Below are positions 22,171-56,171 of a stretch of 64,000 bases of DNA, piece after piece (position 1 is the stretch's first letter; the number at the start of each line of letters is the position of its first letter). Position numbers and translations under genes: made by a program. Location: contig CAYJVR010000004.1 of the NCBI GenBank assembly GCA_964373715.1, positions 25,255 to 89,254 of the forward strand. The letters are read 5' to 3'. The stretch is from an uncultured Planctomycetia bacterium (GTDB taxonomy: Bacteria; Omnitrophota; Gorgyraeia; 1-14-0-20-64-10). The notes under the pieces were generated by a model that saw only the letters and a list, made by a program, of their open reading frames with translations, did no database searches and had not been told where the DNA came from.

Positions 22171-23121
22171 ATGGTTAAAAAAGTTCTCTTGTTTCTGCTC
22201 AGAGCAATCGTCACCCTCCTGGCATTCTGGCTGATCTTCCGGAAGGTTGATTTCTCCACGTTCCAACAAACGATTCTGCAAGCTAAACCCATTTGGCTTC
22301 TGACAAGTCTCGCACTCTTCATTCTGACGCAGTTAGGCTGCATCATCCGGTGGCATCTTCTGGCGCCGAAACACCCTCAACTCACCTTCCCGTTTCTCGC
22401 CAATTCGTACCTTGTGGGGATGTTCTTTAGCGCTTTCCTGCCGACAACGGTGGGGGGAGATGTCATGCGCAGCTACGATCTGATCAAGGCGACGGGACAA
22501 TGGCGAGAACCGCTGGCGTCGGTTCTGATGGATCGGCTGGTCGGAATCACCGGATTGATGATTCTCGCTTTGATTGCCTGGATCTCTTTCCCTCCGGTGC
22601 GGCAGGATCAGGTGATGAATCTCGGCATTTTGTGGCTCTGCGGCATTGTCGTAGCAGCCCTTTGCGTGCTGGCCTCCCGAAGACTGTTGAATGCCACTCT
22701 AAAACCGTTCAGCAAAATCGGCTTGGGACAGCTTCAAAGCCATGCAAAGCAGTTTCAAGAAACTTTGTTGACCTATCTGCGCCGGCCGAACATCCTTATG
22801 GGGGCCCTGGGACTGGCTCTGGCAAACCAAATGTTGGGTGTCATCTCCACCGTGGCGGCCATGAAAGCGCTGAATTTGGAAATACCGGTGTTGTACCTGT
22901 TCATCATCATCCCAATCGTCTCGATGGTTTCGCAGCTGCCGATCTCTCTTAACGGGTGGGGCATTCGGGAAGGAACCACGGTCTTTTTGTTCCACCAGGT
23001 CGGAATTGAACCCGCGATGGGTCTTTCGCTGGCTTTGGTCGGAGCGATGATGCAGTTGTTGCCCGGAATTATCGGCGGGTTTTTGTTTCTAGCGAGACAG
23101 CTCCGAAAGAAACCGGGGTAG
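22171..23121 (+). CDS. flippase-like / lysylphosphatidylglycerol-synthase TM-domain family (UPF0104) membrane protein
   Basis: 316 aa, about 8 predicted TM helices, conserved GGDVMRSYDL-type motif. Confidence 0.55.
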   Translation: MVKKVLLFLLRAIVTLLAFWLIFRKVDFSTFQQTILQAKPIWLLTSLALFILTQLGCIIRWHLLAPKHPQLTFPFLANSYLVGMFFSAFLPTTVGGDVMRSYDLIKATGQWREPLASVLMDRLVGITGLMILALIAWISFPPVRQDQVMNLGILWLCGIVVAALCVLASRRLLNATLKPFSKIGLGQLQSHAKQFQETLLTYLRRPNILMGALGLALANQMLGVISTVAAMKALNLEIPVLYLFIIIPIVSMVSQLPISLNGWGIREGTTVFLFHQVGIEPAMGLSLALVGAMMQLLPGIIGGFLFLARQLRKKPG

Positions 23122-24448
23122 AGCCCTTTCCCAGAAGACGGAGCGCTTCGGCAACCATAAAAAGGGAGCCGGATACCAGGATAAGATCGTCCGAATCCGC
23201 TTCGGATTGAGCCCGTTTGAGCGCCTCCTCAACTGACTCATAAACAGCCGGTTCACTCTTTCCTTCCTCTCTCAAAATCTCCGTTATCTTTTCAGGAGAT
23301 TCGGCCCGCGAAACAGCCGCCCGGGTGACGAGAATCTTCCAATCGGTACGGCTTAAGAGACCGCAAATTCCGGCGAGATCCTTTCCTCTGGAGATTCCGA
23401 GAATCAGCCAAACCTTTTTCTCCGGGAAAATCTCTGTGATGGTCTGACGCAGAACTTTGAAGGAGGCGGCATTGTGCGCTCCATCTAAAAGGATAGGCGG
23501 CCGGCCCTGGACCAGCTGGCAACGGCCGGGCCAAACAACCTCCCGAAGCCCGCGGCATACAACCGTTGTCTCGCATGCACGCCTCTGCCGGGACCACAAC
23601 TCCACCGCACGGACAGCCGTGATGGCGTTTCCAGCCTGGTGACGGCCTAAAAGAGGAACCTCGACTTCCGGATAATCCCCCACGGGTGTCCGGAAGGAAA
23701 ACCGGGTCCCATCCGCGCCTGTTTCAAGACGGGAAACGAGAACCTCCTCCTCTGTCCTGTGCAGCGGGGCACTCCGCGCAGCGGCAACCGCGGAAAAAAC
23801 CGCATCCGCCTCCGGCGGCTGCGGAGCAAGAACCACAGGAACCTTTTCTTTAATGATCCCCGCTTTTTCCAGCGAAATCGCCTCGACCGTATTCCCGAGC
23901 TGCTCCATGTGGTCCAAGCTGACGGGGGTAATTACCGTTACTTCAGGCAGGAGCACATTCGTTGAATCAAGCCTGCCGCCAAGACCGACTTCCACCACAA
24001 CCACATCCACTCCCGCCTCTTGGAAATAAAAAAAAGCCGCGGCTGTCAGGAGATCAAAATACGTCATCTCAGGGACAACAACCGGACGAATCCTGGTGAA
24101 CACCGAGGCAAAATCTTTTTGGGTGATCGGCTCTCCATTCACTTGAATCCTCTCACAGATCGAAAACAGATGCGGCGACGTGTAAAGCCCGGTCCGGACT
24201 CCGGCCGCCTTGAGAATCGAGGCGATAAACGCGCAGGTGGACCCCTTCCCTTTTGTACCGGCGACGTGAATCGCAGGATAACGCCGATGGGGATCTCCAA
24301 GCGCACTCAGTAAGCGGGCGATCCGGTCAAGAGACAAATCCATGGAATAATTCTGCGGCAGGGTTTTTTCGTAATTGACGAAGGAATCGAGATAGTCGAG
24401 CATCTCTTTATAAGTCATAGAAGGCTCCAACCAGAAGGCATTCTGCAA
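23069..24448 (-). CDS. folC: bifunctional folylpolyglutamate synthase / dihydrofolate synthase
   Basis: Mur-ligase P-loop VAGTKGKGST, family-typical length of 459 aa. The 3' end overlaps the convergent 22171..23121 gene by about 50 nt. Confidence 0.8.
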   Translation of the reverse strand: MQNAFWLEPSMTYKEMLDYLDSFVNYEKTLPQNYSMDLSLDRIARLLSALGDPHRRYPAIHVAGTKGKGSTCAFIASILKAAGVRTGLYTSPHLFSICERIQVNGEPITQKDFASVFTRIRPVVVPEMTYFDLLTAAAFFYFQEAGVDVVVVEVGLGGRLDSTNVLLPEVTVITPVSLDHMEQLGNTVEAISLEKAGIIKEKVPVVLAPQPPEADAVFSAVAAARSAPLHRTEEEVLVSRLETGADGTRFSFRTPVGDYPEVEVPLLGRHQAGNAITAVRAVELWSRQRRACETTVVCRGLREVVWPGRCQLVQGRPPILLDGAHNAASFKVLRQTITEIFPEKKVWLILGISRGKDLAGICGLLSRTDWKILVTRAAVSRAESPEKITEILREEGKSEPAVYESVEEALKRAQSEADSDDLILVSGSLFMVAEALRLLGKGSTPVSFGAVSLETKTRR

Positions 24449-24466
24449 CGACAGAACCTGCCATAA

Positions 24467-26044
24467 CTAATGTCTGAAGTGACGTTCTCCGGTGAGCAAC
24501 ATCGGAATCTTCGCTTTTTCGGCGATTTTGATCACCTCCGGATCCTGCACCGAACCTCCCGGCTGAACAATCGCCTTAACACCGGCTTTTACGGCGAACT
24601 GAGGCCCATCCGGTTTCGGAAAGAAACCATCGCTGGCTAAAACAGCTCCCTTGGAACGGGCTCCGGCTTTCTTTAAAGCAATCTTTACGCTGTCCACACG
24701 ACTCATCTGTCCGGCTCCGATACCGACAACCTGCTCATCCTTCACGAGAACAATCGCGTTCGACCGGACAAACCTCGAGACTGTCCAGGCAAAAGCCAGA
24801 TCTCGCCGTTGGGCTGCCGTCGGTTTCACACGGGTCGCTGTGCGCCACTGAGAAGGTTTGACAATCATCCTGTCCGGCTGCTGAACGAGAAGGCCGCTTG
24901 TCACCTGCTTGATGTCCAAACACCCGGAGGGAGGCCGAGTCGAAGAGAGCGGCGCTTCAATCAACCGAAGGTTTTTCTTTCTCTTAAGGATATTGAGCGC
25001 TTCCGCCGAGTAGCCCGGAGCCACGACGCACTCCATAAAACCAGCCTTAATAATCGCCTTGGCGGCCGCTTTATCCACCGTCCGGTTTAAGCCCACAATA
25101 CCGCCGAAGGCAGAAAGAGAATCCCCGGCAAATGCCCGTTCAAAAGCCTTGGCCAATGTCGGAGCACAGGCAGCACCGCACGGATTGGTGTGTTTGATCA
25201 CCGTCGCGGCCGGTTTTTCAAAAGCGGCGGCCACCTCCAAAGCAGCACTCAAATCCAACAGATTGTTGAACGACAGCTCTTTCCCGTGGAGCTGCTTCAA
25301 ATTCCCGCAGCCGTTTGAACCGCTTGCCGCGGAAGGCCACTGGTACCAGCTTCCTCGCTGGTGAGGATTCTCCCCATAGCGGAGGATCTGCCTCCTTGAA
25401 ACGGCTAAAACAAGATGGTCCGGCCACCGCGAATCCCCTTTGGCGTGGCGCGAGAGTCCCTGGCAGATCACGCTGTCATAGTAAGCAGTCTCCGAAAAAG
25501 CGACAACGGCCAGCTTCAGTCGAGTTTCTTCCGACAGGCACCCCCCTTGGCGCCGCAACTCCTCTAGAACCGCCGGATACTGGGAAGGGCACGAAATGAC
25601 ACCGACCGACTCGAAATTCTTAGCGGCGGAACGGATAAGGGCAACCCCTCCAATATCGATTTGTTCGATCAGCTCACGCAGCTTCACCCCTTTCTGCCGC
25701 GTTGTCTCTTCGAACGGGTAAAGATTCACAATGACAAGGTCTATCAGCTTCAGCCCGAGCCTCTTGACCTGTTGAAGATGCCCTTTGTCATGGCGCTTGG
25801 CCAAGATTCCGCCGTGCACTTTAGGGTGAAGCGTCTTGACGCGGCCTGCTAAAATTTCGGGAAACCCCGTAAAATCAGATATCTCCTGGACCGGTATTCC
25901 CCCTTCCTGCAAAAGTTTCGCCGTTCCTCCGGTTGAGATGACCTGAATCCCCATCTCTCTCAAACCGCGGATAAACGGAACAAGATCTCTCTTATCCGAC
26001 ACCGAAACAAGCGCCCTTTTTATTTGGACTCTCTTGGGGCTCAT
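24467..26044 (-). CDS. purH: bifunctional AICAR transformylase / IMP cyclohydrolase
   Basis: 525 aa. N-terminal MGS-like domain ALVSVSDKRDLVPFIRGLREMGIQVISTGGTAKLL and C-terminal AICARFT domain. Confidence 0.9.
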   Translation of the reverse strand: MSPKRVQIKRALVSVSDKRDLVPFIRGLREMGIQVISTGGTAKLLQEGGIPVQEISDFTGFPEILAGRVKTLHPKVHGGILAKRHDKGHLQQVKRLGLKLIDLVIVNLYPFEETTRQKGVKLRELIEQIDIGGVALIRSAAKNFESVGVISCPSQYPAVLEELRRQGGCLSEETRLKLAVVAFSETAYYDSVICQGLSRHAKGDSRWPDHLVLAVSRRQILRYGENPHQRGSWYQWPSAASGSNGCGNLKQLHGKELSFNNLLDLSAALEVAAAFEKPAATVIKHTNPCGAACAPTLAKAFERAFAGDSLSAFGGIVGLNRTVDKAAAKAIIKAGFMECVVAPGYSAEALNILKRKKNLRLIEAPLSSTRPPSGCLDIKQVTSGLLVQQPDRMIVKPSQWRTATRVKPTAAQRRDLAFAWTVSRFVRSNAIVLVKDEQVVGIGAGQMSRVDSVKIALKKAGARSKGAVLASDGFFPKPDGPQFAVKAGVKAIVQPGGSVQDPEVIKIAEKAKIPMLLTGERHFRH

Positions 26045-26685
26045 TTTCTTTTGGATCCCTTCTGTTTCGCCTGCGACTGAAGGATTTTTTTCGCTTCAGG
26101 AGTGGCTATGAACTCCAACCCGATTTTCGCCTTGCGCCGGACGTTCGAATCCGGATCATTCAAGAAGGGGGCAATTACAGGAACCGCTTTCTCAGGCTCA
26201 AGAACCTTGCAAACCGCCTCGATAACAAAACCCCGGACGACTGCTTTCGGATCATTGAGCCTCTCCACAAGGAAGGAAGCGGCCTTTCCTGAGGCTTTCC
26301 CGAATTTGCCGAGCGTCTCCGCAGTCTTGAGCCGGATAAGATATTCTTCGTCTTTTAAGAGAAAAATCAAGATAGCCACCGCCTCTTCGGACGGAACGCC
26401 AATCTCCCCGAGAGCGTCAATACTGTTTTGCCGGACGCGCGAATCTTTGTCTTTCAGAGCTTTCACAAGCAAAGGAACGGCCTCTTTCGCGTCAGGGCCA
26501 AGCCTGGTGAGAGAAACCGCGGCCTCGCGCCTGAGCTCAACATCGGATGACTGCAGATCCTGCACAGCCTCTTTAACCTTCTGCGCATTTTCAGGTTTCT
26601 TCTCATCCGCCCACAAGAAGCCGGGCCGGAAAACAACCAGAGAAAAAAAGAAAACAATGGCCGAGAAACTAACGAATCGTCGCAT
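26041..26685 (-). CDS. secreted HEAT / PBS-lyase-like repeat protein
   Basis: N-terminal signal peptide, then repeated ...VR..A..ALG.IG... HEAT-like units. ATGA overlap with purH. Confidence 0.6.
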   Translation of the reverse strand: MRRFVSFSAIVFFFSLVVFRPGFLWADEKKPENAQKVKEAVQDLQSSDVELRREAAVSLTRLGPDAKEAVPLLVKALKDKDSRVRQNSIDALGEIGVPSEEAVAILIFLLKDEEYLIRLKTAETLGKFGKASGKAASFLVERLNDPKAVVRGFVIEAVCKVLEPEKAVPVIAPFLNDPDSNVRRKAKIGLEFIATPEAKKILQSQAKQKGSKRK

Positions 26686-27427
26686 TCTTCCCCCTCAGTT
26701 TTGACATTAACCGGCGGGTGACGGGACCAGGCACAATCTCCCCAATCCGGCGGCCGTCCACCTCACGGATAGGGAGAAGCCTCATCAAAACGTTGGTAAG
26801 AAAAGCCTCATCCGCGTTAAACAGGTCATGGCGCGTTACCGGAACCTCTTTCACCGGGATCTTCAGACGCCGGGCCGCCTGAAGGACCTTCTTTCTCGTG
26901 ATCCCTTCCAAAACGCCGACCCATGCCGGCGGCGTAAAAAGCGTTCCCTCTTTCACAAAAAAGAAGTTGGAAACCGTCCCCTCGGTAAGGAGACCGTGGG
27001 AACCAAGCCGAAGGACATCAAACGCCTCTCCCCCCTCGCAGCGGGCAAGAATGCTGGAAAGCCTTTCCGAATGTTTCGACAGAGACCGCGCCGTTTCCCC
27101 GGACGGCCAGCGAGTCGGAACTGTCCTGAGCCGGACCCCCCACTTCTGAAGCGCAGGCGTGTAACGGGTCCGCGCAGAAGCGTGCAAAACCGTTCTTCTC
27201 TCGCCGTACCGGTTGACCGTAACACGAACATAACCGCTGCCGATCCGCCGGGCCTCTCTGCGGATTTCGGCCGCCAAATTATCTTGTCCGTAAAAATCAA
27301 CGGCCAACGCATGAAGAGATTCGTTGATCCGTTGAATATGTTCCCTCAGATTCACCGGCCGGCCGTTTTCCACCCGGATCGTTTCAAAACAACCGGAGGA
27401 ATCAAACAGCTCAGGAACTGGACGCAT
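26669..27427 (-). CDS. pabC: class IV aminotransferase fold protein, probable aminodeoxychorismate lyase
   Basis: 252 aa with fold-type IV PLP-enzyme features (...EAFLTNVLMRLLPIREVDG...). Overlaps pabB by 17 nt. Confidence 0.65.
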   Translation of the reverse strand: MRPVPELFDSSGCFETIRVENGRPVNLREHIQRINESLHALAVDFYGQDNLAAEIRREARRIGSGYVRVTVNRYGERRTVLHASARTRYTPALQKWGVRLRTVPTRWPSGETARSLSKHSERLSSILARCEGGEAFDVLRLGSHGLLTEGTVSNFFFVKEGTLFTPPAWVGVLEGITRKKVLQAARRLKIPVKEVPVTRHDLFNADEAFLTNVLMRLLPIREVDGRRIGEIVPGPVTRRLMSKLRGKNATIR

Positions 27428-28904
27428 GCGCTACAAGCTCCCACGCAGGAGAAGAGTTGCTTCGAAAAGCATCCATGAGAGCTTGGGCTTTATGAACCGT
27501 TTCATCATACTCCCTGGAAGGGTCCGAATCGGCCACGATTCCGGCGCCGGCCTGGACATAGACCGTCTCATTGACCGCCAGGCCGGTGCGTATAAGCAGG
27601 TTCAAATCGCTGTCGCCCGTATAGCTGATGTAACCCAAAGAACCTGTGTAAAGCTGGCGACGAACCGGCTCTAGGGAATCGATGACCTTCAAGCACGCAA
27701 TCTTCGGGCATCCGGTAATTGTCCCGCCCGGGAACGCGGCGGCGATAAGATCCACCGGCCGGACACCGGGACGCAAAAAACCCTTCACGTTCGAAACAAT
27801 ATGGATAACGTGGGAAAACTCCTCCAGCACCATCAGTTCATCCACCCGAACCGAACCGGCTCGGCAGACACGGCCGAGGTCGTTCCTCTCGAGGTCCACC
27901 AACATCAGATGCTCCGCCCGTTCCTTCTCGTTTAAAATCAACTCTTGGCGCAAGCGGGCCGTTTCAACGGCAGTTTTGCCCTTTGGCCGCGTTCCCGCAA
28001 TCGGCCTGGTTTCCACTTCTCCCGCCGAAACCCTTAAAAACCGCTCCGGGGAGGCTGAGATGACCTGCAAAAAACCAAGATCGGCGTAACAGGCGAAGGG
28101 AGAGGGGTTGATTTCTGTCAAACGGCGGTAGAACTCCCAAGGGCTCTGCGTTAACGGCATCGAGAAACGCTGGGAAAGGTTCGCCTGGTAGATCTCTCCA
28201 TCGGCAATGAACTCTTTAGCGCGGCGCACCATCGCCTCGAAATCGGCCCGCGTGTGGGTGCTGGAAAAAGACACGGGGCGGAGGGCAAGAGACGGGGGAC
28301 GTTCATTTTGCACGGAACGAGTGATCCTCTTGAGGAGTGCCTCTGCCCGGCCGGCCGCTTGATCATACGCTTGCGCCGGATTCCTGCCCGCGTCAGCGAG
28401 AACAATCACCCAGAGCTGTTTCTTTAGATGGTCTAAAAGCACCGATTCGTCACAGAAAAGGAATCCTATATCCGGCAACCCCAGATCATCCTGCGCTTTT
28501 GAGGCAAGCGGTTCAATGGTGCGGTACGCGTCAAACCCGAAGAAACCAATCGCCCCACCGACGAAGGGGGGAAACCCGGGGATTTTGGCTGCCGGTTTCG
28601 CGTCCAGCATCTGCTGTAAAAGCTCCAGCGGGTTGCCGGTCATCTGTTCGGTTCCCTTTTGGCCGACCAGCGTGATCCGGTCTCCTTTAGCAGTAAGAAA
28701 TAAGGCCGGCTCCCCCACCATCAGGCTGTACCGGCCGGTGACCGGATGAAATCGGGCCGATTCCAGAAGGACAGCCGGGGATTTCCACGCAGCGGCCGCG
28801 AAAAAATCCTGCGGCGAGGCTTCCAGAGAAAGCTTCGCCGCCACGGGGATCCACCGATGGGTCAAGGCTAATTCAAGAAATTTCCAACGGGAAGGTGTGA
28901 ACAC
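27411..28904 (-). CDS. pabB: aminodeoxychorismate synthase component I (chorismate-binding enzyme, TrpE/PabB family)
   Basis: 497 aa. Chorismate-binding C-terminal domain motifs (GAIGFFGFD, RGxYTGSLGYIS, PGGTITGCPK). Adjacency to pabC and folC supports a folate role over a tryptophan role. Confidence 0.75.
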   Translation of the reverse strand: MFTPSRWKFLELALTHRWIPVAAKLSLEASPQDFFAAAAWKSPAVLLESARFHPVTGRYSLMVGEPALFLTAKGDRITLVGQKGTEQMTGNPLELLQQMLDAKPAAKIPGFPPFVGGAIGFFGFDAYRTIEPLASKAQDDLGLPDIGFLFCDESVLLDHLKKQLWVIVLADAGRNPAQAYDQAAGRAEALLKRITRSVQNERPPSLALRPVSFSSTHTRADFEAMVRRAKEFIADGEIYQANLSQRFSMPLTQSPWEFYRRLTEINPSPFACYADLGFLQVISASPERFLRVSAGEVETRPIAGTRPKGKTAVETARLRQELILNEKERAEHLMLVDLERNDLGRVCRAGSVRVDELMVLEEFSHVIHIVSNVKGFLRPGVRPVDLIAAAFPGGTITGCPKIACLKVIDSLEPVRRQLYTGSLGYISYTGDSDLNLLIRTGLAVNETVYVQAGAGIVADSDPSREYDETVHKAQALMDAFRSNSSPAWELVAHASSS

Positions 28905-28921
28905 AAAGACTATTTTATCAC

Positions 28922-28971
28922 GCGGCGGTGTCGTTAGAAAATGGAAGCGGCCTTAAACTGGATCTCCAGCC
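28922..28971 (-). terminator. rho-independent terminator downstream of kamA (minus strand)
   Basis: 11-bp perfect stem aagcggcctta / taaggccgctt with a 16-nt loop. On the minus strand it is followed by ccattttct. Confidence 0.5.
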
Positions 28972-28996
28972 TAAGGCCGCTTTACTTACAAGTTAC

Positions 28997-29056
28997 GACC
29001 GCCGAGGGACCGCGAAGCGGTCCGAGGAAGTAGTTGAGCGTTCCTTACGCTCAGAC
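28997..29056. repeat. about 60-nt structured stem-loop element, copy 1 (abuts kamA stop codon)
   Basis: gaccgccgagg-GGACCGC-gaa-GCGGTCC-g-AGGAA-gtagttgagcg-TTCCT-tacgctcagac: two hairpins. About 85% identical to 33457..33517. Confidence 0.5.
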
Positions 29057-30285
29057 TACGGGATATAATCCTGGAACCCATGGAAACCGTTTCCGCTGCC
29101 ATTCCCGTTGCCGTTAAACTTGATGCGATTCTTTAACGCGACCGGCTGGCCCGCGGGAACCAGTTCGAGCTCCCCCAATTCCGTCTCATAGTAGGTGTAC
29201 TCTTCCCCTTTGAAGTTCCGGAGCCGGATTACACCGTTCTCATAGGAAAGGACGTAGCTGGGAGCCACGGGAATTTTGCCTCCACCGCCTGGGCCGTCAA
29301 TCACGTAGGTCGGCACCGCATAGCCGGTCGTGTGACCGCGCAAGGCCTCCATGATTTTGATCCCGGTGGATACCGAGGTGCGGAAATGACTGATCCCCTG
29401 CGCAGGGTCGCACTGGTAGATGTAATACGGCCGCACCCGGACTTTCAGAAGCTCATGCATCAGCTTCCTCATCACCTGCGGATCGTCGTTCACCCCTTTT
29501 AACAGCACCGTCTGGGACCCGAGAGGAACACCGCTTTCGGAAAGCATGTCCATTGCCTGCTTCAAGCGGGGCGTAACCTCCTTGGGATGGCAGAAATGCA
29601 AGCTCATCCAGATCGGCTTGTTCTTCTTTAAAACCGCGCAGTACTCTTCGGTAACCCGCTGTGGCATCGTAACCGGGGTGCGGCTTCCTATCCGGATGAA
29701 CTCAATATGGTCAATCTTGCGCAGTTCGGCCAAAATCCGGTCCAACCGGACATCCGTCATCATCAGGGGATCCCCTCCGGAGATGAGGACATCCCGCACC
29801 TCTTTGTGCTCCCTCAAATACTGAAAAGCCGGCTCATAGCTGTTCATCAACCCGTTGTTGACGCCGACCAGCCGCCGCCGGGTACAGTGCCTGCAGTACA
29901 TAGCGCACTGTTCGGTGACCAAGAAAAGGACCCGGTCCGGATACCGGTGAACCAGCCCCTTGACCGGCATATCTCCATCCTCACCGCAAGGATCCCGCAT
30001 ATCATGCGGCCCGATTTCGAACTCGACCGATGTCGGAACAGCCTGCTTGCGGATCGGGCAGTTCGGATCCTTCGGGTCCATCAGGGAGGCCCAGTACGGC
30101 GGTATCGCCATCACAAGCCGGCCCTCTTTTCTTGCAACCGCTTCCTCCTCTTCCGGCGTCATCTCGATAATCTGCCTGAGCTGGTCTGCCGTGTAGATAC
30201 GGTTCCGCAACTGCCACTGCCAATCATCCCACTCCTCGGGTGTCACACTCTTCCAGAGCGGTATACGGCGGTAACTGTCGTCCAA
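29056..30285 (-). CDS. kamA: KamA-family radical SAM lysine 2,3-aminomutase
   Basis: 409 aa. CxxxCxxC radical-SAM motif CAMYCRHCTRRR and full-length KamA architecture. C-terminal tail NGNGNGSGNGFHGF. Confidence 0.8.
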   Translation of the reverse strand: MDDSYRRIPLWKSVTPEEWDDWQWQLRNRIYTADQLRQIIEMTPEEEEAVARKEGRLVMAIPPYWASLMDPKDPNCPIRKQAVPTSVEFEIGPHDMRDPCGEDGDMPVKGLVHRYPDRVLFLVTEQCAMYCRHCTRRRLVGVNNGLMNSYEPAFQYLREHKEVRDVLISGGDPLMMTDVRLDRILAELRKIDHIEFIRIGSRTPVTMPQRVTEEYCAVLKKNKPIWMSLHFCHPKEVTPRLKQAMDMLSESGVPLGSQTVLLKGVNDDPQVMRKLMHELLKVRVRPYYIYQCDPAQGISHFRTSVSTGIKIMEALRGHTTGYAVPTYVIDGPGGGGKIPVAPSYVLSYENGVIRLRNFKGEEYTYYETELGELELVPAGQPVALKNRIKFNGNGNGSGNGFHGFQDYIP

Positions 30286-30297
30286 GGTCTTCCTCCT

Positions 30298-31497
30298 TCA
30301 GATCGTCTTCCCGAGCTTTTTCCCATCGGACACAGCCGCGGGATTGCTCGAAGGCCCCGCCTCCTTCTCCATCGGGTCAGGGAGTACCCGATACGCTGGA
30401 GCTTGGGAGACCGGGTTGTTCGTTTTGAATGATGGTATGGATAAAACGGCGCCTAGCTCCGGAGACGGAGAGGACGCCGGCAAGCTCTTGTCGGATGGTT
30501 TATTCAAACGCACAACCGCAAGTTGTATGATCCGGCTGATGAGAGTCGCGTACGGAATGCCTGCCGCCTTGGTCATCATCGGGATGTTCGATTCTTCAGG
30601 ATCCAGCCCGGGCAGCGTGTTGACCTCAAGAACGTAAGGTATCCCTTCCTGGCTCAACCGGATGTCCACGCGTGAGAAATCGCGGCAACCCAAGGAAAAC
30701 GCCGCTTTCTTGGCCACCGTTCCAACCGCTTCGGCAGTGGACAAACTCAGCCGGGCCGGGCACCAGAATTTCGGGTCCAGGTGCATCTCCTTGTTTCCCT
30801 GGTATTCTTTCACCTTCCAAGAGTAGAACGATTCCCCCGCTGGCGCGCATGGGCTAAAATCAATCTCAAGAATAGGGAGCACCTCTTCCCCGAGCAATCC
30901 GACCGTCAGCTCGACCCCCTCGATAAATTCCTCGACCAGCACCTCCTGGCCGTAATCAGTGAAAACCCTTTGAATCTGTGCCCGGAGAGCCGCCTCGGAA
31001 CGAACAACGCTGCTCGTGAGTATTCCCTTACCGGAACCTTCCCTGTTTGGTTTGACAATCAGAGGGAACTGAAGCCGGCTGTCCAACGGTTCATCCAAAT
31101 GCGTGAAAACCTGGAAATTCGGCGTCGGTATGCCGACCGACCGGAAGATATATTTAGAACGGGCTTTGTCCAGAGACAAGGCCAGCGCGAGAACTCCGGA
31201 TCCGGTATATGGGATCTCCAGAAGCTCCAGCAGAGCCGGAACGCGCGCCTCACGGGCTTCACCGGAAAACCCCTCCGAGATATTGAACACGAGATCGACC
31301 GGGTTCTCAGCCAGCCAAAGAGGAAGCTTGCTATCCGCCTCAACCGGGAAAACCTTATGCCCCGCCAACTCGATCGCCTGAGTGATGTACCCAACCGTTT
31401 TCGGGCTGTCGCACTCGGAGTAGTAGTCAGCCGGCCTGCCTGCTTCCTTCACCAGAGGTTTCAAGTTATGGACCAGTGCCACACGCAAACTTTTCAT
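30298..31497 (-). CDS. D-alanine--D-alanine ligase family ATP-grasp enzyme with low-complexity C-terminal extension
   Basis: 399 aa. Ddl-like N-terminal (VALVHNLKP...), central and ATP-grasp domains (EEFIEGVELTVGLLGEEVLPILEIDF..., VDIRLSQEGIPYVLEVNTLPGL). Pro/Ser-rich tail of about 80 aa. Confidence 0.7.
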   Translation of the reverse strand: MKSLRVALVHNLKPLVKEAGRPADYYSECDSPKTVGYITQAIELAGHKVFPVEADSKLPLWLAENPVDLVFNISEGFSGEAREARVPALLELLEIPYTGSGVLALALSLDKARSKYIFRSVGIPTPNFQVFTHLDEPLDSRLQFPLIVKPNREGSGKGILTSSVVRSEAALRAQIQRVFTDYGQEVLVEEFIEGVELTVGLLGEEVLPILEIDFSPCAPAGESFYSWKVKEYQGNKEMHLDPKFWCPARLSLSTAEAVGTVAKKAAFSLGCRDFSRVDIRLSQEGIPYVLEVNTLPGLDPEESNIPMMTKAAGIPYATLISRIIQLAVVRLNKPSDKSLPASSPSPELGAVLSIPSFKTNNPVSQAPAYRVLPDPMEKEAGPSSNPAAVSDGKKLGKTI

Positions 31498-32519
31498 TTT
31501 GCCCGTGCGTTCACTTTCTGTTGGAATTGGGCGGTTGCCTGCTGAAACCCCAGACGCTTGACCGCCGCCTCGATGATTCGGCCGATCATCTGGGGATAGG
31601 TAATGCCAAGACGGTTACAAATGACCTGGAACACGTCCTCGGTGGAAAGGGACGGCAAAGGATTGATCTCCAGCACGTAGACGGAGCCTTCTCTGTCGAT
31701 CCGGAAATCAACCCGCCCAAGGTCAACGCAGTCCACCGCCCGGTAAACCCGGATGGCCAATTCCTGAAGTTTTTTCTCAACCCCCGCGTCAATCCGGGCC
31801 GGACAGATGTACCCTGCCCCCGAGGCAATTCTCGAAAAGGTGTAAAAAAGATCTCCCAAATCCGTCCGTCCGTCTATCGAGATCTGGACCACCGGCAGGG
31901 CTTCGGGCGGGTCATTGCCGACAACCGGCACGGTGAACTCCGTCCCTTGGATGAATTCCTCCACCAGAGCCGGCTCGCGATAAGTGGTCATGAGCCATTG
32001 CGTTTGCGCGCGGAGCTCTTCGACGTTGTGGACGACGGATTTATCGGAAATCCCCTTGCTGGAACCTTCAAAACGGGGCTTGACGATCAGCGGGAAGGAA
32101 ATATCCGGCGGAAGCTGCTGGCCGGGGTCATGGACTTCAAAGAAACGGGGCGTCGGGATCCCTTCTCCGAGGAAAATTCTCTTGGCCATCACCTTGTCCA
32201 GCGTCAGAGCCTGGGTGAGGCCGTCCGATCCGACGTAGGGAATACCTTTCATCTCAAGAAGGATCGGAACCTGCGACTCCCGGTTCCTTCCGCGGAGACC
32301 TTCGGCGACGTTGAAAACCAGGTCCACCCTAACATCATCGAGCTTCTTCAACAGCTGTTCGGCGCTGCCCAGGCGAACCACGGTGTGGCCGAGCGAGGCG
32401 ATCGCGTTTTCGATCACTTCGATGGTTGAAGGGTGGTCAAATTCGGCATTGGCATCCGGGGGATCTCCAACCTTGAAGACATACTCCGTCTTCAAATCAT
32501 AGGTCATCCCGATGATCAT
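31494..32519 (-). CDS. D-alanine--D-alanine ligase family ATP-grasp enzyme (second, divergent paralog)
   Basis: 341 aa. Same domain order (EEFIQGTEFTVPVVGNDPPEALPVVQISIDG..., VDFRIDREGSVYVLEINPLPSL). ATGA overlap with the downstream paralog. Confidence 0.7.
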   Translation of the reverse strand: MIIGMTYDLKTEYVFKVGDPPDANAEFDHPSTIEVIENAIASLGHTVVRLGSAEQLLKKLDDVRVDLVFNVAEGLRGRNRESQVPILLEMKGIPYVGSDGLTQALTLDKVMAKRIFLGEGIPTPRFFEVHDPGQQLPPDISFPLIVKPRFEGSSKGISDKSVVHNVEELRAQTQWLMTTYREPALVEEFIQGTEFTVPVVGNDPPEALPVVQISIDGRTDLGDLFYTFSRIASGAGYICPARIDAGVEKKLQELAIRVYRAVDCVDLGRVDFRIDREGSVYVLEINPLPSLSTEDVFQVICNRLGITYPQMIGRIIEAAVKRLGFQQATAQFQQKVNARAK

Positions 32520-32820
32520 CGCGTCCCCCGGCGAACAAAAAGAGGAGCTCCCTCACACAGGTCGCCCCCCTTCAAACGTGCGATTGTATTCAATTGTGAG
32601 GGTCTGACTACCTCCTCTTCACTTTATCCGAAAACTTAGTGATCGGTCTGCTGATCAAACTCTTGCACCCCAGGCCGAACATCAAAGCAAAACCAATTCA
32701 TCGAAAAGATATTCTTAAGAAAAAATAACATGAGTGTCTGACGTTGTCAAGTTCGAACGAAGAAAAATTTATTCCCGCCGACGGAAATGATTACAATAGG
32801 AACTTCGAGAAGGAGGTTCT

Positions 32821-36768: not shown

Positions 36769-38013
36769 CTACTGCTGAGGAGCCACGACTATCTGTCCCT
36801 CTTTTTTAGTGCCCAGGTCTGGGTTAAGTGTGTAGAGGTATTCCACAATAGCGTCAATCTCTTCCTCCGGGATCTTTCCTTTCCAGGAGGGCATCCACAG
36901 GGGAGGCGACATGCCGCCCGAATCGGCCCGGGCCGGATAGCGTCCCACCTGAATTACCGTCTTCATCTCCTCCTTGGTGAATCCGGCCGACACGTAGACC
37001 AAAGAGGGGACTTCCTCTCCGGGGAACATGTTCTTGTTCCGGACGCCTCCGCGCCCTTCCAAACCGTGGCAGGCGGTGCATCCGTACGACTTGAACGCGG
37101 CCTTCCCCTGCTCCGCTTTCGAGGCGTACACCTTCTTCTCCTCTTTGTGCGACGGGGCAGGCACCCGGTACTTAGCAGGGATCGGGTGGTGTTCGTCCTC
37201 CTTGGCCGCCGCAAAACTCAGAACCAGCGCGGTTAGCGCCCGGTTCTGCTCTTCGGTGAATTCGTAGTTGGGCATTGCCGACTCCGGAATGCCGACAGCT
37301 TTATCTTCGGGAACAATCCGCTGGGGATCCTTAAAATGGTCATAGATCCAGTTCGCCACGGTGTGGGCCCCGTGCACGTTCCGGAAATCTAATTCATCCA
37401 GCGCCTTCTTCCCCGTATCGGAAAGTTCTGGACCGATCTGGTTGCCGACGCCGTTCAGAGCGTGACAGCCAATACATCCCTTCGTATCAAAAAGGATCTT
37501 CGCCTCCGCAAGCTTCTCCGCCCCCTTGAGTTCGAAAACGTTGTCGTGGCAAACAGAGCAGTTGGAAACAACCAAATCTTTGTCGAGAAGGGGCTCCTCC
37601 CAGTGCTTGACGCGGCCGTGAGCCGCCTCTTTTGTGGTGGCCATTCCCTGCCCCTCATGGCAGACAGTACAGCCGATCTCCCTGAACGGGTGGGCTGCGA
37701 GGAAACCGGGAATACCCAAGTCCGGATGGCTCCTGAACGGCTGGGGCTGATCCGCCAACTTGGGATTATCAATCCCCGCATGGCAGGTGATGCACCGGTC
37801 GGTCTTATGGAATTGGGGCAGATAGATTTGCTCAACCTTGAGCGGCATCTTCGCGCGGGTCGGGTCGCCAGTCACCTGGGCAAGCCGGCGGTAATATTCC
37901 TTCTGAACGGGCATCCACTCCGGGGTCGACTCCTGCCAAATCAGGTAGCCGGCCATGAACCCCAGCGAAAAACCGGAGAGGATGAACAGCTTATTCCAGA
38001 CCGATCTCTTCAT
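36769..38013 (-). CDS. membrane-anchored pentaheme c-type cytochrome (bc-complex cytochrome c subunit)
   Basis: Five CxxCH motifs (CITCH, CTVCH, CSVCH, CIGCH, CTACH), N-terminal TM anchor, adjacent to cytochrome b. Confidence 0.8.
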   Translation of the reverse strand: MKRSVWNKLFILSGFSLGFMAGYLIWQESTPEWMPVQKEYYRRLAQVTGDPTRAKMPLKVEQIYLPQFHKTDRCITCHAGIDNPKLADQPQPFRSHPDLGIPGFLAAHPFREIGCTVCHEGQGMATTKEAAHGRVKHWEEPLLDKDLVVSNCSVCHDNVFELKGAEKLAEAKILFDTKGCIGCHALNGVGNQIGPELSDTGKKALDELDFRNVHGAHTVANWIYDHFKDPQRIVPEDKAVGIPESAMPNYEFTEEQNRALTALVLSFAAAKEDEHHPIPAKYRVPAPSHKEEKKVYASKAEQGKAAFKSYGCTACHGLEGRGGVRNKNMFPGEEVPSLVYVSAGFTKEEMKTVIQVGRYPARADSGGMSPPLWMPSWKGKIPEEEIDAIVEYLYTLNPDLGTKKEGQIVVAPQQ

Positions 38014-38018
38014 CAGGT

Positions 38019-39581
38019 TTACAGGTTCAGGTTAAAGTCCGGGAAGGAAATGATGTATTTGATATTGAAGAAGTTCCTCAGCACAATCTTCACTGGGACG
38101 AAAAACATCAGCAAAACCAGCGACATGACAACGACATACTTAATGGGGCCGAGTTTTTTGTAGAAATCTTTGAAGCAGAGTTTGGGCAGCAGCATCCCTA
38201 TGCCGCCGTAGCCCAGAACCAGCGCAAGCCCCGCCCAGTTCGGCATATTGTGCATCGCCCCAGCTTTTGAAATCCGGTGATAATCCCACGCCTGCCAAGG
38301 CATGTACATTTCCCATCCGGGGCCGCGCATGTAATAGCCGATGAAAATCAGCGCAAACCAAAAAACGATTCCAAAGGTGAACATGCTCACGGCAAACTTC
38401 CGGTTCTTGAAATTGTAGTAGCCGATGCCGGTCGGATTGATATCAATGTACGGGATCGCCATGAGACCGACCAGGATAACCGTCGGCAAAACCACGCCGG
38501 CCATCCAGGGATCGAAATAAACCAGCAGCTCCTGCAGTCCCACGAAATACCAGGGGGCCTTGGAGGGATTCGGCGTCTTGTTCGGGTTGGCCAATCCCTC
38601 CAGCGGGGCATGGGCCAGGATCGACCACAGCGTTAAAACGGCCGTCAGCACGAGCGCGCCGACAAACTCCTTCGAAACCAGCGCCGGCCAGGTGAAGACC
38701 TTTTTTTGGAGTTCCTCCGGGTGGGCCTTCAGCCATGCTTCGGGGAGAACGCCCTTCTTTTTTTCCTCTTTTGGAGGCAAAGGAATAGCGGAGAATTCAT
38801 CCTTGCGAACGCGCCAAAGGTGGACCGACACGAAGACGAGAAAGATCAAAGGGAGAAAAACGCAATGGAGCACGTAGAACCGGAGCAGCCCCGACTGCCC
38901 GACAATCTTGGATCCCAGCAGGATAAAGCGGGCGTCCATATCGGGCCCCACGATTGCAAAGGGGCCTTCGGAACCCAGCAACGGAGTGGCCGCGGCCATG
39001 TTGGTTCCCACAGTCACGGCCCAAATCGCCAGTTGATCCCACGGAAGCAGGTAGCCGGTGAATGAAAGGAGGAAGGTGATGAGCAGCAGGATGACACCCA
39101 CCACCCAGTTGTATTCGCGCGGAGGCTTGTAGGCCGAGCGGTAAAAGACCGACGCCATGTGAAGCATCACAAACAGAACCATGACGTGGGCCGACCACCG
39201 GTGGATGTTCCTCAAGAACGGGCCGAACGGCACCGCATAGCGCAGATCCTTCATATCCCAGTAGGCGTGTTCGATCGTCGGCCGGTAATAGAACATGAGG
39301 AAGACACCGGTGACAGTCAGCAGGATGAACAGATAAAAGCTTAACCCCCCCAGACCCCAGGTATAGCGGAACTTCAAGGCGGCCGGCCGCGTCTTCACCG
39401 GATGCAGGTGAAGAAAAACATTGGAAAGAACCATCAGCGCCCGGTTCCGCGGCGTGTCCTGATATCCGTGACGGAAGATGGACTTCCATATCTTGGATTG
39501 CCGGACGGTCCGGGCAATCGTGTTAAACAAGGGTTCCTTCTTCTCAGGTGATGCTGGGGATTCTGTCTTTTCGTCGGCCAT
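38019..39581 (-). CDS. cytochrome b (fused N- and C-terminal domains) of a cytochrome bc complex
   Basis: 520 aa. Cytochrome b/b6 motifs (heme-ligand His pairs within TM helices, PEW-like region [10 protein letters not shown]). Confidence 0.85.
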
Positions 39582-39596
39582 TGTGTGTGTGTCGCC

Positions 39597-40238
39597 TTAC
39601 ACGTTCACTTTGAGATAAAAATCCGGTTTCTTCCAGTCCTTAGGGTTCTTAAGCCGCGTGCCGGTGTCCACCAAGATCTGCCCGTCGTCGGCCAAGACCA
39701 CCTTGCACCGCTCCAACGGCCGGGGGGCCGGCCCTTCGAAGTTGATGCCGGTCCTCCGGAAACCTGACCCATGGCATGGACACTTGAACTTTCTCTGTCC
39801 CTCGAGCCAATTCGGCGTGCACCCCAAGTGAGTGCATCGCGCGAAGATGACGTAGATCGCGGCTCCCTCCGCTACACTGTCCCGGCAGACCCATATCCGG
39901 TATTTCTTCTTCAACCGCTCGGTCACCTCTCCCGGAAGGTATTCGTCCGGCTTTCCGATTTTAAAGGTGGACGGCGGATCATAGGTAATCTGCGGGATGA
40001 AGAACCTCAAAATGGCCAGAACTGAGGCACCGAGTCCGGCCAGCACAGCACCCCAGGCCGCCAGAGAAAGAAATTCCCGTCGGGTGAACCAGAGGTTCGG
40101 GACTTTGGTCTCATCCACCTCAATCTGGTGAATGGATTTCGCCGGCCCCTTAGGAACAGCGGGGGCGAGGGGTTTCGCGGCGGCCATCGGAGGCGTCTGC
40201 GCCGGCGTTGCCGGCTGGGGTGTTCCCTCAACGCTCAT
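39597..40238 (-). CDS. Rieske [2Fe-2S] protein with twin-arginine signal
   Basis: Box I CTHLGC and box II CPCHGSGF. N-terminal TRREFLSLAAWGAVLAG is a Tat signal, consistent with nearby tatAC. Confidence 0.85.
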   Translation of the reverse strand: MSVEGTPQPATPAQTPPMAAAKPLAPAVPKGPAKSIHQIEVDETKVPNLWFTRREFLSLAAWGAVLAGLGASVLAILRFFIPQITYDPPSTFKIGKPDEYLPGEVTERLKKKYRIWVCRDSVAEGAAIYVIFARCTHLGCTPNWLEGQRKFKCPCHGSGFRRTGINFEGPAPRPLERCKVVLADDGQILVDTGTRLKNPKDWKKPDFYLKVNV

Positions 40239-41336
40239 TTATGAAGCGACCTCTTTATAAATAGGCTCATCTTCCTGAAACCGGATGTCTTGGGGCTGGT
40301 CTTTTCTGCTGAACCGGCTCAGGAAATCGGCCATCTGTTCTTCAATGATTCGGGTGCAAGCGTCCGCTTCTTTCAGACGCAACCTAAGATTCGCAGAGGC
40401 AATCCCTTCCAGGTCATCAATATCGTAAAGATAAACGTTTTCCAACTGCCCCGCACGGGGGTCTACATTGCGGGGAACGGATATATCGATGAAGAAAAGC
40501 GGCCTCTGCCGCCGGACGGCCATCACTCGGCGCACCTGCTCGGAGCTCAGCAGATACCTGTCGGAAGCGGTCGAGCAGATCACGATGTCCGCTTTCGCCA
40601 GAAACTGCTCCAAGCTGGAGAGAGGAACCGCCTGCCCTCCGACGGCGCGGGCCAACACGGCGGCTGATTCAACCGTCCTGTTGGCAATGATGATGGAGGA
40701 AACCCCCTGCTCCTTTAAGCAGGTGAGCGTCGATTCCGCCATCTGGCCCGCCCCTAAATTCAAAATTGTTTTTGTTTTGAAATCGAGGAATATCCTGCGG
40801 GCCAGCTCAACAGCGACCGAGCTGATGGAGACGGCCCCCTGGCCGATCCGGGTCTTTGAACGGGCCTCTTTGCCGATCCGAATCGCGGTCTGGAAAAAGC
40901 GGTGGAAGACGGATCCCACGGTCCCGTGCGAAACCGCCTGCGTGTAAGCATCCCGGACCTGGCCGAGAATCTCCGATTCCCCGACAACCATTGAATCCAA
41001 ACCGGCGGCCACCCGGAAGAGGTGCCGGACTGAATTCGGCTGCCGGTACGAATAGAAATTGCTCTCGAAATCTTTCAGGTTCACTCGATGGAAACGGGAG
41101 AGAAAACCGCGCAGTTCCTCTTCGATCCCATTCTCCCGCGGCAGGAGCGTGTACAGCTCAACTCTGTTGCAGGTGGACAGGATCACGCATTCGGGAATTC
41201 CCACCTCCTCCCGAATAGCGTTTAACGCGACCGGGATCCGATCTTCCTGAAACGCCAGCCTTTCGCGAAACTCCACAGGGGCTGTGCGGTGATTTAAACC
41301 GAGTACGCCGATGTCCATTTTCCCCAGTAGACCCAC
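40239..41336 (-). CDS. hemA: glutamyl-tRNA reductase
   Basis: Active-site region VILSTCNRVELY, NADP-binding GAGQMAE. The true start is probably MDIGVLGLNHRTAPVE at 41318. Confidence 0.85.
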   Translation of the reverse strand: MGLLGKMDIGVLGLNHRTAPVEFRERLAFQEDRIPVALNAIREEVGIPECVILSTCNRVELYTLLPRENGIEEELRGFLSRFHRVNLKDFESNFYSYRQPNSVRHLFRVAAGLDSMVVGESEILGQVRDAYTQAVSHGTVGSVFHRFFQTAIRIGKEARSKTRIGQGAVSISSVAVELARRIFLDFKTKTILNLGAGQMAESTLTCLKEQGVSSIIIANRTVESAAVLARAVGGQAVPLSSLEQFLAKADIVICSTASDRYLLSSEQVRRVMAVRRQRPLFFIDISVPRNVDPRAGQLENVYLYDIDDLEGIASANLRLRLKEADACTRIIEEQMADFLSRFSRKDQPQDIRFQEDEPIYKEVAS

Positions 41337-41411
41337 ATTTATAGTCCGATCAAAAAGAACTTAGATGCGACATGCGCGCAACAAAGCAGATCAGCCTTTT
41401 TCATCGGACAC

Positions 41412-41855
41412 TCAAAAGAAGACGTGTTTGCCGCCGACAAGGTAGTTCACGCCGATGAAAGTAAACATGACCAGCAAAAAACTCACGACCGACATCAGCA
41501 CCACCCGCCGGCCCTTCAATCCAACAGTGGCGCGCAGAACAAGAACGGCCGCGTAAGCCAGCCAGGTAAACCCGCTGGAAACTTCTTTCGGATCCCAGGT
41601 CCAGAAGGCCCCCCAATTCTCCCTCGCGAGGAAAACCCCCTTCAAGATGCCGAAGCTGAAAAGGCTGAACCCGATCACAACAGCCCAGAAATTCACACGA
41701 TCCAGAAGATCAAGAGGAATGGTCGGCATAGCGAGAATCCGCGCATCTTTGCGCTTAAGACGGCCCTCCTGAACAAGAAACGCGACACCGGTCAAGACCG
41801 CCAGAAAAAAAGCGGCGTAACTGGCAAAGATAACTCCGGCATGCAAACCGATCAC
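41412..41855 (-). CDS. short CcsA/HemX-like cytochrome c assembly family membrane protein (WWD motif)
   Basis: WGAFWTWDPKE tryptophan-rich heme-handling motif. 147 aa with 4 TM helices. Sits between sirC and hemA, as hemX does in hemAXCDBL-type operons. Confidence 0.6.
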   Translation of the reverse strand: MIGLHAGVIFASYAAFFLAVLTGVAFLVQEGRLKRKDARILAMPTIPLDLLDRVNFWAVVIGFSLFSFGILKGVFLARENWGAFWTWDPKEVSSGFTWLAYAAVLVLRATVGLKGRRVVLMSVVSFLLVMFTFIGVNYLVGGKHVFF

Positions 41856-41946
41856 CCCACCACCCCATCACTCTTCCCACCACGTGATGGAACCGCCTGC
41901 TTATCCGCTGAAAACATCTGCTTTCTCAGCTTTCTTTGTGGTGGGG

Positions 41947-42534
41947 TCACTTTAGCGCATTCTCCACAACCTTCATGTAGGCCTTTAAAGCCGTCTCAAA
42001 AAGCTCTTTTCGCCGCCGGAAACCCGGCACCTTACTTTTTACGGCCTCACGAACACTCACCATCTTCTTCAGTAGAGGGTCGAATTCAGGGCCGTACCGG
42101 TTTCCGATGTCCCGCCGTATCCATTTTGCCAGAGCCGGGCTCACCCCGCCGGTTGAAACGGCCAGCACCAGTTTTCCCCTGCGCACCACAGAGGGAAAAA
42201 TAAAAGAGCACAGGTCCGGCTGATCCACAACGTTGATCCAGACTCTTTTGCGCCGAGCGATCCTGGAGGCCAGCTTATTCACCTGCTGGTCGTCCGTGGC
42301 GGCGACTGCCAACTGGGCTCCCCGCATATCGGACGCTTTAAAGCGCTTTTTGTGCCACCGGATTTTCCCCTGCCGGGCCAGCCGCATGAGCTCGCCGACA
42401 GCTTCAGGACTTACTACCCGGACTTGAGCCCCGCATGAAAGCAGTGCTTTTACCTTGCGGCAGGCAATCTCCCCGCCCCCGATTACCAAGCAAGGACGGC
42501 CTTTTAACTCCAGAAAGATCGGGTAATACCGCAC
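41947..42534 (-). CDS. sirC: siroheme synthase N-terminal domain protein (precorrin-2 dehydrogenase / sirohydrochlorin ferrochelatase)
   Basis: MRYYPIFLELKGRPCLVIGGGEIACRKVKALLSCGAQVRVVSPE Rossmann motif typical of CysG-N/Met8/SirC. 195 aa. Confidence 0.75.
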   Translation of the reverse strand: MRYYPIFLELKGRPCLVIGGGEIACRKVKALLSCGAQVRVVSPEAVGELMRLARQGKIRWHKKRFKASDMRGAQLAVAATDDQQVNKLASRIARRKRVWINVVDQPDLCSFIFPSVVRRGKLVLAVSTGGVSPALAKWIRRDIGNRYGPEFDPLLKKMVSVREAVKSKVPGFRRRKELFETALKAYMKVVENALK

Positions 42535-42590
42535 AATACGATTGCCTATAAGAGGCCTATTATCCAGGATTTAAAGCGCAAAGACAAGTA

Positions 42591-43619: not shown

Positions 43620-43631
43620 CCCACCACCTAC

Positions 43632-48667: not shown

Positions 48668-48685
48668 ATTCAGCGGCGGTAAAAC

Positions 48686-53405: not shown

Positions 53406-53413
53406 GCGGCCGG

Positions 53414-56073: not shown

Positions 56074-56077
56074 CCCT

Positions 56078-56160: not shown

Positions 56161-56171
56161 TTGCCCCGGTT

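Follow-up and report, generated by a model that had tools for sequence, protein, structure and literature searches.

A conserved pairing of lysine 2,3-aminomutase with Ddl-like ATP-grasp ligases in Omnitrophota, and a possible route to beta-lysyl peptides

Introduction

To our knowledge, beta-lysine has few fates: it is acetylated to give an osmolyte, attached to elongation factor P (EF-P), built into antibiotics by nonribosomal peptide synthetases (NRPS), or fermented. In AblA/AblB, found in methanogens and some bacteria, beta-lysine is made and then converted to N-epsilon-acetyl-beta-lysine by an acetyltransferase; in EpmB/EpmA, a KamA-family aminomutase is coupled to a paralogue of class II lysyl-tRNA synthetase (LysRS) that forms a beta-lysyl amide on EF-P. 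Here we examine a different arrangement, found in a 64,000-nt stretch of DNA from an uncultured bacterium of the phylum Omnitrophota (GenBank assembly GCA_964373715.1, contig CAYJVR010000004.1, positions 25,255 to 89,254; hereafter, the window). In this stretch a gene for a lysine 2,3-aminomutase (LAM) homologue, kamA, is preceded by two genes for ATP-grasp ligases of the D-alanine-D-alanine ligase (Ddl) family, which we call ligase 1 and ligase 2.

Other described systems also offer points of comparison. BacD, a bacterial L-amino acid ligase, and carnosine synthase, an animal enzyme that joins beta-alanine to histidine, are ATP-grasp ligases that make small peptides without ribosomes or NRPS, as we propose for the module described here, although we can point to no close sequence relationship between them and the module ligases. 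In Enterococcus faecium, the ATP-grasp D-aspartate ligase Aslfm and the aspartate racemase Racfm are encoded in one operon, so that there, too, the maker of a non-standard amino acid adjoins the ATP-grasp ligase that installs it; that system differs in its ATP-grasp family, in its amino acid, and in having a known peptidoglycan target. We found in the literature no description of a system combining KamA with an ATP-grasp ligase, and no ATP-grasp dipeptide ligase paired with or fused to a radical S-adenosylmethionine (SAM) aminomutase. The enzyme families at this locus are known; their combination, which is conserved and sometimes takes the form of a fusion protein, is new.

Conservation of the ligase-KamA module

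The three open reading frames (ORFs) of the module are co-oriented on the minus strand in the order ligase 1, ligase 2, kamA (Table 1). Their coordinates in the initial annotation were exact, as was the spacing given there: the start codon of ligase 2 lies on the stop codon of ligase 1 in a 4-nt overlap (ATGA), and kamA begins with a TTG codon 12 nt past the ligase-2 stop, with AGGAGG just before it.

Conservation of this arrangement was assessed in two independent scans, each of which took the best-matching loci only, and the counts below refer to those loci. For the genome scan we used one genome per species and examined the best-matching 80 loci, nearly all from Omnitrophota, by tblastn; for the metagenome scan we used the best-matching 80 contig loci, on contigs that carry no taxonomic assignment, 54 of which had room for the neighbouring genes. 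Wherever a genome locus had room, ligase 2 lay directly downstream of ligase 1 (70/70) and KamA came directly next (61/61). Of the 54 metagenome loci, 49 have KamA adjacent and 3 have it nearby; 2 lack it. The retention of the arrangement in 61/61 genome and 52/54 metagenome loci is far beyond chance. The adjacency of kamA to the ligases thus proved to be conserved among relatives, and the functional link between them that had been proposed from the window is upheld both by this near-invariant adjacency in the Omnitrophota loci and by gene fusions in both orders, described below. One of the two loci that had room and lacked KamA encodes three tandem ligases of the subfamily (L176:6214-9572), with no KamA within 8 kb. 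In L092, where the context is unrelated, about 4 kb separate KamA from a ligase.

Both ligases have their closest homologues in metagenome-assembled genomes of Candidatus Omnitrophica/Omnitrophota, at 59-76% identity for ligase 1 and mostly 54-74% for the single-domain homologues of ligase 2. Across the 80 genome loci, ligase 1 is 57-69% identical. The flanks upstream of the module vary between lineages.

A second large group of Omnitrophota (group B), which includes a 3.36-Mb genome and Ca. Zapsychrus exili, carries one ligase with KamA directly after it, and both BLAST score and pocket motifs place this ligase with ligase 1 (type 1). Because group B has a single ligase-1-type gene and KamA, the conserved core of the module is one ligase plus KamA, and ligase 2 is confined to part of the phylum. 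Of the two ligases, it is ligase 1 that is KamA's ancestral partner; ligase 2 represents another, older subtype (type 2) that occurs outside this operon as well. The number of ligases per module ranges from 1 to 3 among loci, with three in L170 and L176. It had been suggested that two consecutive ligases next to KamA point to assembly of a di- or tripeptide. The linkage to KamA in that suggestion stands, but two ligases, and hence a tripeptide, cannot be the defining feature, because ligase 2 is limited to part of the phylum and three-ligase variants exist.

The two activities also occur within single polypeptides. We identified at least four fusions, in both orders and with different ligase subtypes: KamA is N-terminal in L170:1078-3300 (740 aa), P0359 (784 aa) and P0378 (744 aa), and the ligase is N-terminal in P0302 (695 aa). 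Because the fusions occur in both orders and with different subtypes, we regard them as strong evidence that KamA and the ligase act in one pathway. The lysine-specific and catalytic residues of KamA, discussed below, are kept in three of the four; P0302 has Gln at position 293. The cluster to which the L170 fusion belongs (L170:1078-6026, JGI Ga0315308_1001669) also encodes a type-1 ligase (343 aa) and a fusion of a ligase with a GNAT domain (Acetyltransf_3; 537 aa).

The ligase fused to KamA in P0359 and P0378 (C-loop GLTPxYSD) is of the same type as the C-terminal half of a set of di-ligase proteins, 680-700 aa in length. Genes for these proteins lie directly upstream of a Peptidase_S58 gene (L007:8001-11347, L008:8001-11197 and L009:1968-5164), with no KamA nearby. 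We rejected the notion that the di-ligase proteins are fusions of ligase 1 with ligase 2: each ligase is closer to the C-terminal half (40-46% identity) than to the N-terminal half (~34-38%), and the neighbours are S58 genes, not KamA. Peptidase_S58 is the DmpA/BapA family, which includes beta-aminopeptidases. Peptidases of this family act on beta-amino-acid peptides such as the products of carnosine synthase (PMC9235088). A description of the S58-linked di-ligase system was not found in the literature.

KamA as a lysine 2,3-aminomutase

KamA matches the Pfam families Radical_SAM and LAM_C and aligns end to end with LAM of Clostridium subterminale (2A5H; E 5e-138). It scores 363.4 with the family model TIGR00238, above the cut-off of 199.2. 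Its closest equivalog model is that of AblA (TIGR03820), with which its score of 498.6 is just below the cut-off of 525.4; the models for glutamate and arginine aminomutases score lower and well below their cut-offs, and the EpmB model TIGR03821 gives 244.1 against a cut-off of 369.3. The cysteines C125/C129/C132 (CxxxCxxC), R134, D293, D330 and K337, the lysine that binds pyridoxal phosphate (PLP), are conserved in the window KamA and invariant in 64/64 orthologues. From the 2A5H structure and the literature on glutamate 2,3-aminomutase, we take D293 and D330 to hold the epsilon-ammonium group of lysine and R134 to bind its carboxylate; these two aspartates differ in the glutamate-specific enzyme. 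Because the lysine-specific and catalytic residues are invariant, KamA most likely acts on free L-lysine to give beta-lysine.

The clostridial enzyme has a C-terminal cysteine cluster that binds zinc. Most Omnitrophota KamA proteins stop near residue 367 of the clostridial enzyme, and there is no cysteine in any of their tails. The C-terminal end of the window KamA (29056-29181, minus strand) is a Gly/Asn-rich stretch, NGNGNGSGNG.

The similarity of KamA to AblA, and the presence next to it of an enzyme that would modify beta-lysine, recall AblA/AblB. The modifier in this module, however, is an ATP-grasp ligase and not an acetyltransferase, and the distribution of the module looks phylum-wide rather than tied to salt adaptation. 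No GNAT or AblB gene is present in the window operon, in its flanks or among the conserved neighbours; only the distant L170 has a ligase-GNAT fusion. With EpmB/EpmA the module shares the coupling of a KamA-family aminomutase to an ATP-dependent enzyme that would form beta-lysyl amides, but its aminomutase is not of the EpmB type, its ligating enzyme is an ATP-grasp protein rather than a LysRS paralogue, and no linkage to efp was found. No EpmA-like (tRNA-synthetase-type) gene is found among the Pfam-annotated neighbours of the module, and a tblastn search for efp in the 1.25 Mb of collected loci found none. The distinction that the initial annotation drew between this module and both systems therefore holds.

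The same observations bear on whether a ligase might beta-lysylate a component of the translation apparatus, as EpmA/EpmB do with EF-P or RimK with S6. ATP-grasp enzymes that modify proteins, such as RimK, LysX and TTL, provide precedents, and ligase 1 has a weak match to the Pfam TTL family. In 33 loci the gene immediately following kamA encodes an EF-G paralogue and in 45 a gene for a YchF-C-domain protein comes next, and group B has rpsU and mnmE downstream of the module and era upstream. These translation neighbours sit in a phylum-wide synteny block, however, and are weak evidence; KamA is of the long LAM/AblA type and not of the EpmB type; epmA, like efp, was not found in the collected loci; and modules have anywhere from 1 to 3 ligases. 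We consider protein modification improbable.

The ligases compared with D-alanine-D-alanine ligase

Both ligases match the Pfam family Dala_Dala_lig_C (PF07478; E 4.7e-37 for ligase 1 and 7.7e-36 for ligase 2), and they are 39% identical to each other. In E. coli DdlB numbering, K97, K144, S150, E180, E187, R255, D257, E270 and N272 are kept in both, and the ATP, Mg and catalytic residues are conserved across 77 ligase-1 and 71 ligase-2 sequences. Because every such residue that we checked is kept, both proteins should be active enzymes. The AlphaFold model of ligase 2 has a core with pLDDT >90, and its best matches in the PDB are Ddl structures, at 26-32% identity and a TM-score of ~0.85-0.88 (normalised to target). 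The module ligases thus share with Ddl and VanA the fold, the residues for ATP, Mg and the acyl-phosphate and, probably, the logic of joining two small amino acids.

They differ from Ddl in several respects. Both fall below the cut-offs of the Ddl models: with NF002378 (cut-off 243) ligase 1 scores 178.8 and ligase 2 scores 208.2, and with TIGR01205 (cut-off 245.65) the scores are 156.1 and 180.0. The N-terminal domain carries an insertion of ~12-15 aa with an invariant motif, PxDxxxExD, and the Ddl motif HGxxGEDG is replaced by FNxxEGxxGxxRE (GEDG becoming RxRE). We take H63, K215, Y216, S281, L282 and E15 to be the residues of the D-Ala sites, following the literature on DdlB. H63 is Glu in all of the ligase sequences, and E68 and D69 are also replaced in all orthologues; the equivalent of E15 is uncertain, owing to the insertion, which makes the N-terminal alignment to Ddl ambiguous. 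The residues of the second substrate site differ between the two types: ligase 1 has Ile for K215, lacks Y216, and has Val for L282 and Asp for S281 (the latter in 77/77 sequences), whereas ligase 2 keeps the K215 equivalent, has a 6-aa insertion in the omega-loop, and has Asn at 282. Ligase 1 has additional invariant acidic residues, namely D22, E26 and D28 in the N-terminal domain, along with the Asp at 281.

Because the scores are below the cut-offs, the HGxxGEDG motif is replaced and accompanied by an N-terminal insertion, the second-substrate site is changed, and NCBI names these proteins only as "ATP-grasp domain-containing protein", our reading of the sequences is that the ligases are not bona fide Ddl. 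A comparison of their substrate loops with those of Ddl, which had been proposed as the way to recognise a true Ddl at this locus, showed the D-Ala-site residues to be replaced. The partner gene is likewise kamA, rather than one of the mur or dcw genes.

The competing explanation is that the two proteins are the organism's D-Ala-D-Ala ligase and a paralogue of it, with KamA kept alongside as inherited synteny without functional meaning. JGI does label many members of the subfamily as D-alanine-D-alanine ligase. K01921 has been scored as present in 176/176 complete Omnitrophota genomes (preprint 10.64898/2026.06.07.730766), and those calls might be these very genes. In the loci around the module no third, canonical Ddl was found. 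Against this explanation stand the sub-cut-off scores and the NCBI name, the replacement of H63, E68 and D69 in all orthologues, the absence of K215 and Y216 and the Asp for Ser281 in ligase 1, and the KamA fusions in both orders, which synteny alone cannot explain. We judge it very improbable.

The subfamily is large. About 1,100 clusters (50% identity) match ligase 1 at E ≤ 1e-30, a count that probably includes some canonical Ddl, and NCBIfam has no specific model for the subfamily, the fused forms included.

A proposed pathway to beta-lysyl peptides

We propose, with a probability of about 0.5, that the module uses ATP to ligate beta-lysine, made by KamA, into a small beta-lysyl peptide or amide. 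In the first step, for which the conserved residues are good support, KamA would convert free L-lysine to beta-lysine by radical-SAM/PLP chemistry. In the second, ligase 1, with its Ddl fold, would use ATP to form an acyl-phosphate, and the resulting amide would join beta-lysine to a second amine or carboxylate substrate. The most economical guess for that partner is a second beta-lysine, by analogy with the joining of two D-Ala by Ddl, because the acidic residues that are invariant in the two substrate sites of ligase 1 would match a substrate with two ammonium groups. In the half of the phylum to which the window belongs, a third step may follow, in which ligase 2, an intact paralogue with a Ddl-like K215, would make a second amide, probably by adding an amino acid.

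The most likely product is a small, free beta-lysyl di- or tripeptide, cationic or zwitterionic, that Omnitrophota would make constitutively. We lean towards a free peptide because modules contain between 1 and 3 ligases, a GNAT fusion exists, the fused ligases include the S58-linked type, and no gene for a target is conserved; among the operon neighbours we found no conserved gene for a carrier or target protein. Somewhat more tentatively, at a little short of an even chance, we suggest that Omnitrophota and the scattered lineages with KamA-ligase fusions make a new beta-lysine compound (beta-lysyl-beta-lysine, oligo-beta-lysine or a beta-lysyl amino acid) by means of dedicated Ddl-like "beta-amino-acid ligases". 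Such a compound could be universal in the cells of the phylum, perhaps as a polyamine-like counter-ion to ribosomes and nucleic acids or as a covalent substituent of the wall.

Several points weigh against the proposed pathway. What the sequences show is the gene order and its conservation, the fusions, the residue patterns, the enzyme class of ligase 1 and its link to KamA; the reactions built on these are inferred, and the partner substrate and the regiochemistry are guesses. The presence of the module in every related locus that we examined, its unusually high sequence conservation and its housekeeping neighbourhood (rpsU, the EF-G paralogue, purH, folC, mnmE and era) would fit an essential structural role, for instance in modifying the wall or a translation factor, at least as well as a free solute. 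The S58 and GNAT associations belong to relatives and not to the window operon. The role of the acidic cluster is only a proposal, given the ambiguous N-terminal alignment with Ddl. Finally, a separate canonical ddl was looked for, and not found, in the loci around the module.

The strongest alternative is that one or both ligases modify peptidoglycan, placing beta-lysine on a precursor as a side chain or bridge, or on the free carboxylate of the stem peptide. The Aslfm/Racfm operon would be a parallel, the closest characterised relatives of the ligases (Ddl) are enzymes of the cell wall, and the highly conserved module is present in every related Omnitrophota locus that we examined; the variation from 1 to 3 ligases resembles variation in bridge length. 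A complete peptidoglycan pathway has moreover been reported for Omnitrophota (preprint 10.64898/2026.06.07.730766). This alternative has to contend, however, with the lack of any mur, dcw, pbp or fem gene adjoining the module in the window or in ~170 related loci, and with ligase sequences that show no sign of a binding site for a nucleotide precursor; the S58 and GNAT associations in relatives also favour small peptides. We consider peptidoglycan modification unlikely, though the best of the alternatives.

The genes downstream raise the question of a cofactor. In the window (23069-28904, minus strand) the module is followed by genes for pabB-like, pabC-like and HEAT-repeat proteins, purH and folC, and in most Omnitrophota loci purH and folC, often with mnmE, come after the module in a long conserved synteny block. 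By analogy with MptN and CofF, which are ATP-grasp enzymes, beta-lysine might be added to a folate or pterin tail; the window's clade, and also L094, a locus with a single ligase, has pabB and pabC between kamA and purH. We downgraded the link to folate because the upstream genes are equally syntenic. On the two sides of the module, a HhH-GPD glycosylase gene, era, yjeF_N and rpsU keep their places just as well, so that the linkage looks like a housekeeping block and not a pathway. In the window, a strong terminator separates kamA from pabB, and we know of no chemical precedent for such a modification. It is the least probable of the alternatives that we considered.

If the ligation of beta-lysine into a small peptide or amide is correct, an ATP-grasp route to beta-lysyl amides would be an additional fate for beta-lysine, and a function would be defined for a large Ddl-like subfamily that is now mis-annotated, with many of its members labelled "D-alanine-D-alanine ligase". 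In surveys that score K01921, such labels may lead to overcounting of peptidoglycan genes. The module appears across a phylum of ultra-small, host-associated and uncultivated bacteria; for that reason the product is likely to be basic to Omnitrophota physiology, and it could serve as a chemical biomarker.

Features of the operon

The coordinates of the module and its flanking elements are collected in Table 1.

Table 1. Features of the ligase-KamA operon in the window.
Feature	Position	Strand	Remarks
Promoter-like element, TAGTCA-16 nt-TACAAT	32583..32610	-	Consensus scan
Terminator-like hairpin and U5 tract in 5' leader	32533..32572	-	Conserved stem
Ligase 1	31494..32519	-	341 aa; Ddl-family ATP-grasp ligase, type 1
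Ligase 2, whole ORF	30298..31497	-	399 aa
Ligase 2 catalytic core, residues 1-337	30487..31497	-	Ddl-family ATP-grasp ligase, type 2
Ligase 2 Pro/Ser-rich C-terminal tail, residues 338-399 and stop codon	30298..30486	-	
kamA	29056..30285	-	409 aa; radical-SAM/PLP lysine 2,3-aminomutase homologue
Structured 3' untranslated region (UTR), three hairpins	28905..29055	-	Last hairpin is an intrinsic terminator

Close relatives retain the promoter-like block: identity is 87% over 31 nt in L010 and ~75% over 90-150 nt in L133 and L175. TAGTCA-16-TACAAT is the probable promoter of the operon. The leader hairpin lies ~20 nt before the start codon of ligase 1 and has a 13-pair consensus stem in the window, L133, L175 and L012, with 2 compensatory pairs; the terminator scan also matched the leader at 32554..32542. 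In 15 loci (L010:1711-2397, L001:7242-7913 and 13 others), ligase 1 is immediately preceded, on its own strand, by a gene for a membrane protein of ~228 aa that matches PF05552, a transmembrane helix of mechanosensitive channels; this gene is absent from the window. In group B the place is taken by an MgtE-type gene (L096 and L097), and in L097 an Nramp gene comes directly before the ligase. The leader hairpin may act as an attenuator, or it may be a relic of the terminator of the membrane-protein gene that the window has lost. A riboswitch in the leader was considered and rejected, as there was no Rfam match even at E ≤ 5 and folding was no better than that of shuffled sequences.

At the other end, the strong terminator noted initially is a hairpin of 17 pairs, 9 of them GC, with a U-rich tail (28982..28945). 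What had been described as a structured repeat past the terminator turned out instead to be a set of nested hairpins around it, and the motif occurs once in the window. The 154-nt 3' UTR folds with an energy of -69.8 kcal/mol (z = -6.96 against shuffled sequences).

The Pro/Ser-rich tail of ligase 2 is present as described, but its length by pLDDT and composition is ~62-72 aa rather than 80. Residues 338-399 have an AlphaFold pLDDT <50, and the 72-residue stretch contains 11 each of Pro and Ser. Of 71 ligase-2 orthologues, 8, all from the window's subclade, have tails of 58-99 aa, and elsewhere the median tail is 7 aa. The sequence of the tail is not conserved, apart from weak conservation at its end, where it overlaps the Shine-Dalgarno sequence of kamA. 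We predict that the tail is disordered and lies outside the conserved mechanism.

Other features of the window

Elsewhere in the window we identified a c-di-GMP-I riboswitch aptamer (RF01051) at 3460-3590 on the plus strand, with 49.1 bits against a gathering score of 35. The minus strand carries two very long ORFs, one of 2365 aa at 14049-21146, with HATPase_c as its only match, and one of 1445 aa at 9619-13956, with WD40 repeats; both fit the reported tendency of the phylum to giant proteins. A biotin gene set lies at 51288-58043 (minus strand) and includes a BioD-BioA fusion (705 aa), a BioF-like aminotransferase and BioB. A recent survey of Omnitrophota described biotin synthesis as largely deficient in the phylum. 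The region 36769-50958 (minus strand) contains a cluster for Rieske protein, cytochrome b and multihaem cytochrome c that adjoins hemA, together with a futalosine-type menaquinone set comprising MqnA-like, two CofH/MqnC-type radical-SAM, UbiA, UbiD, UbiX and UbiE homologues.

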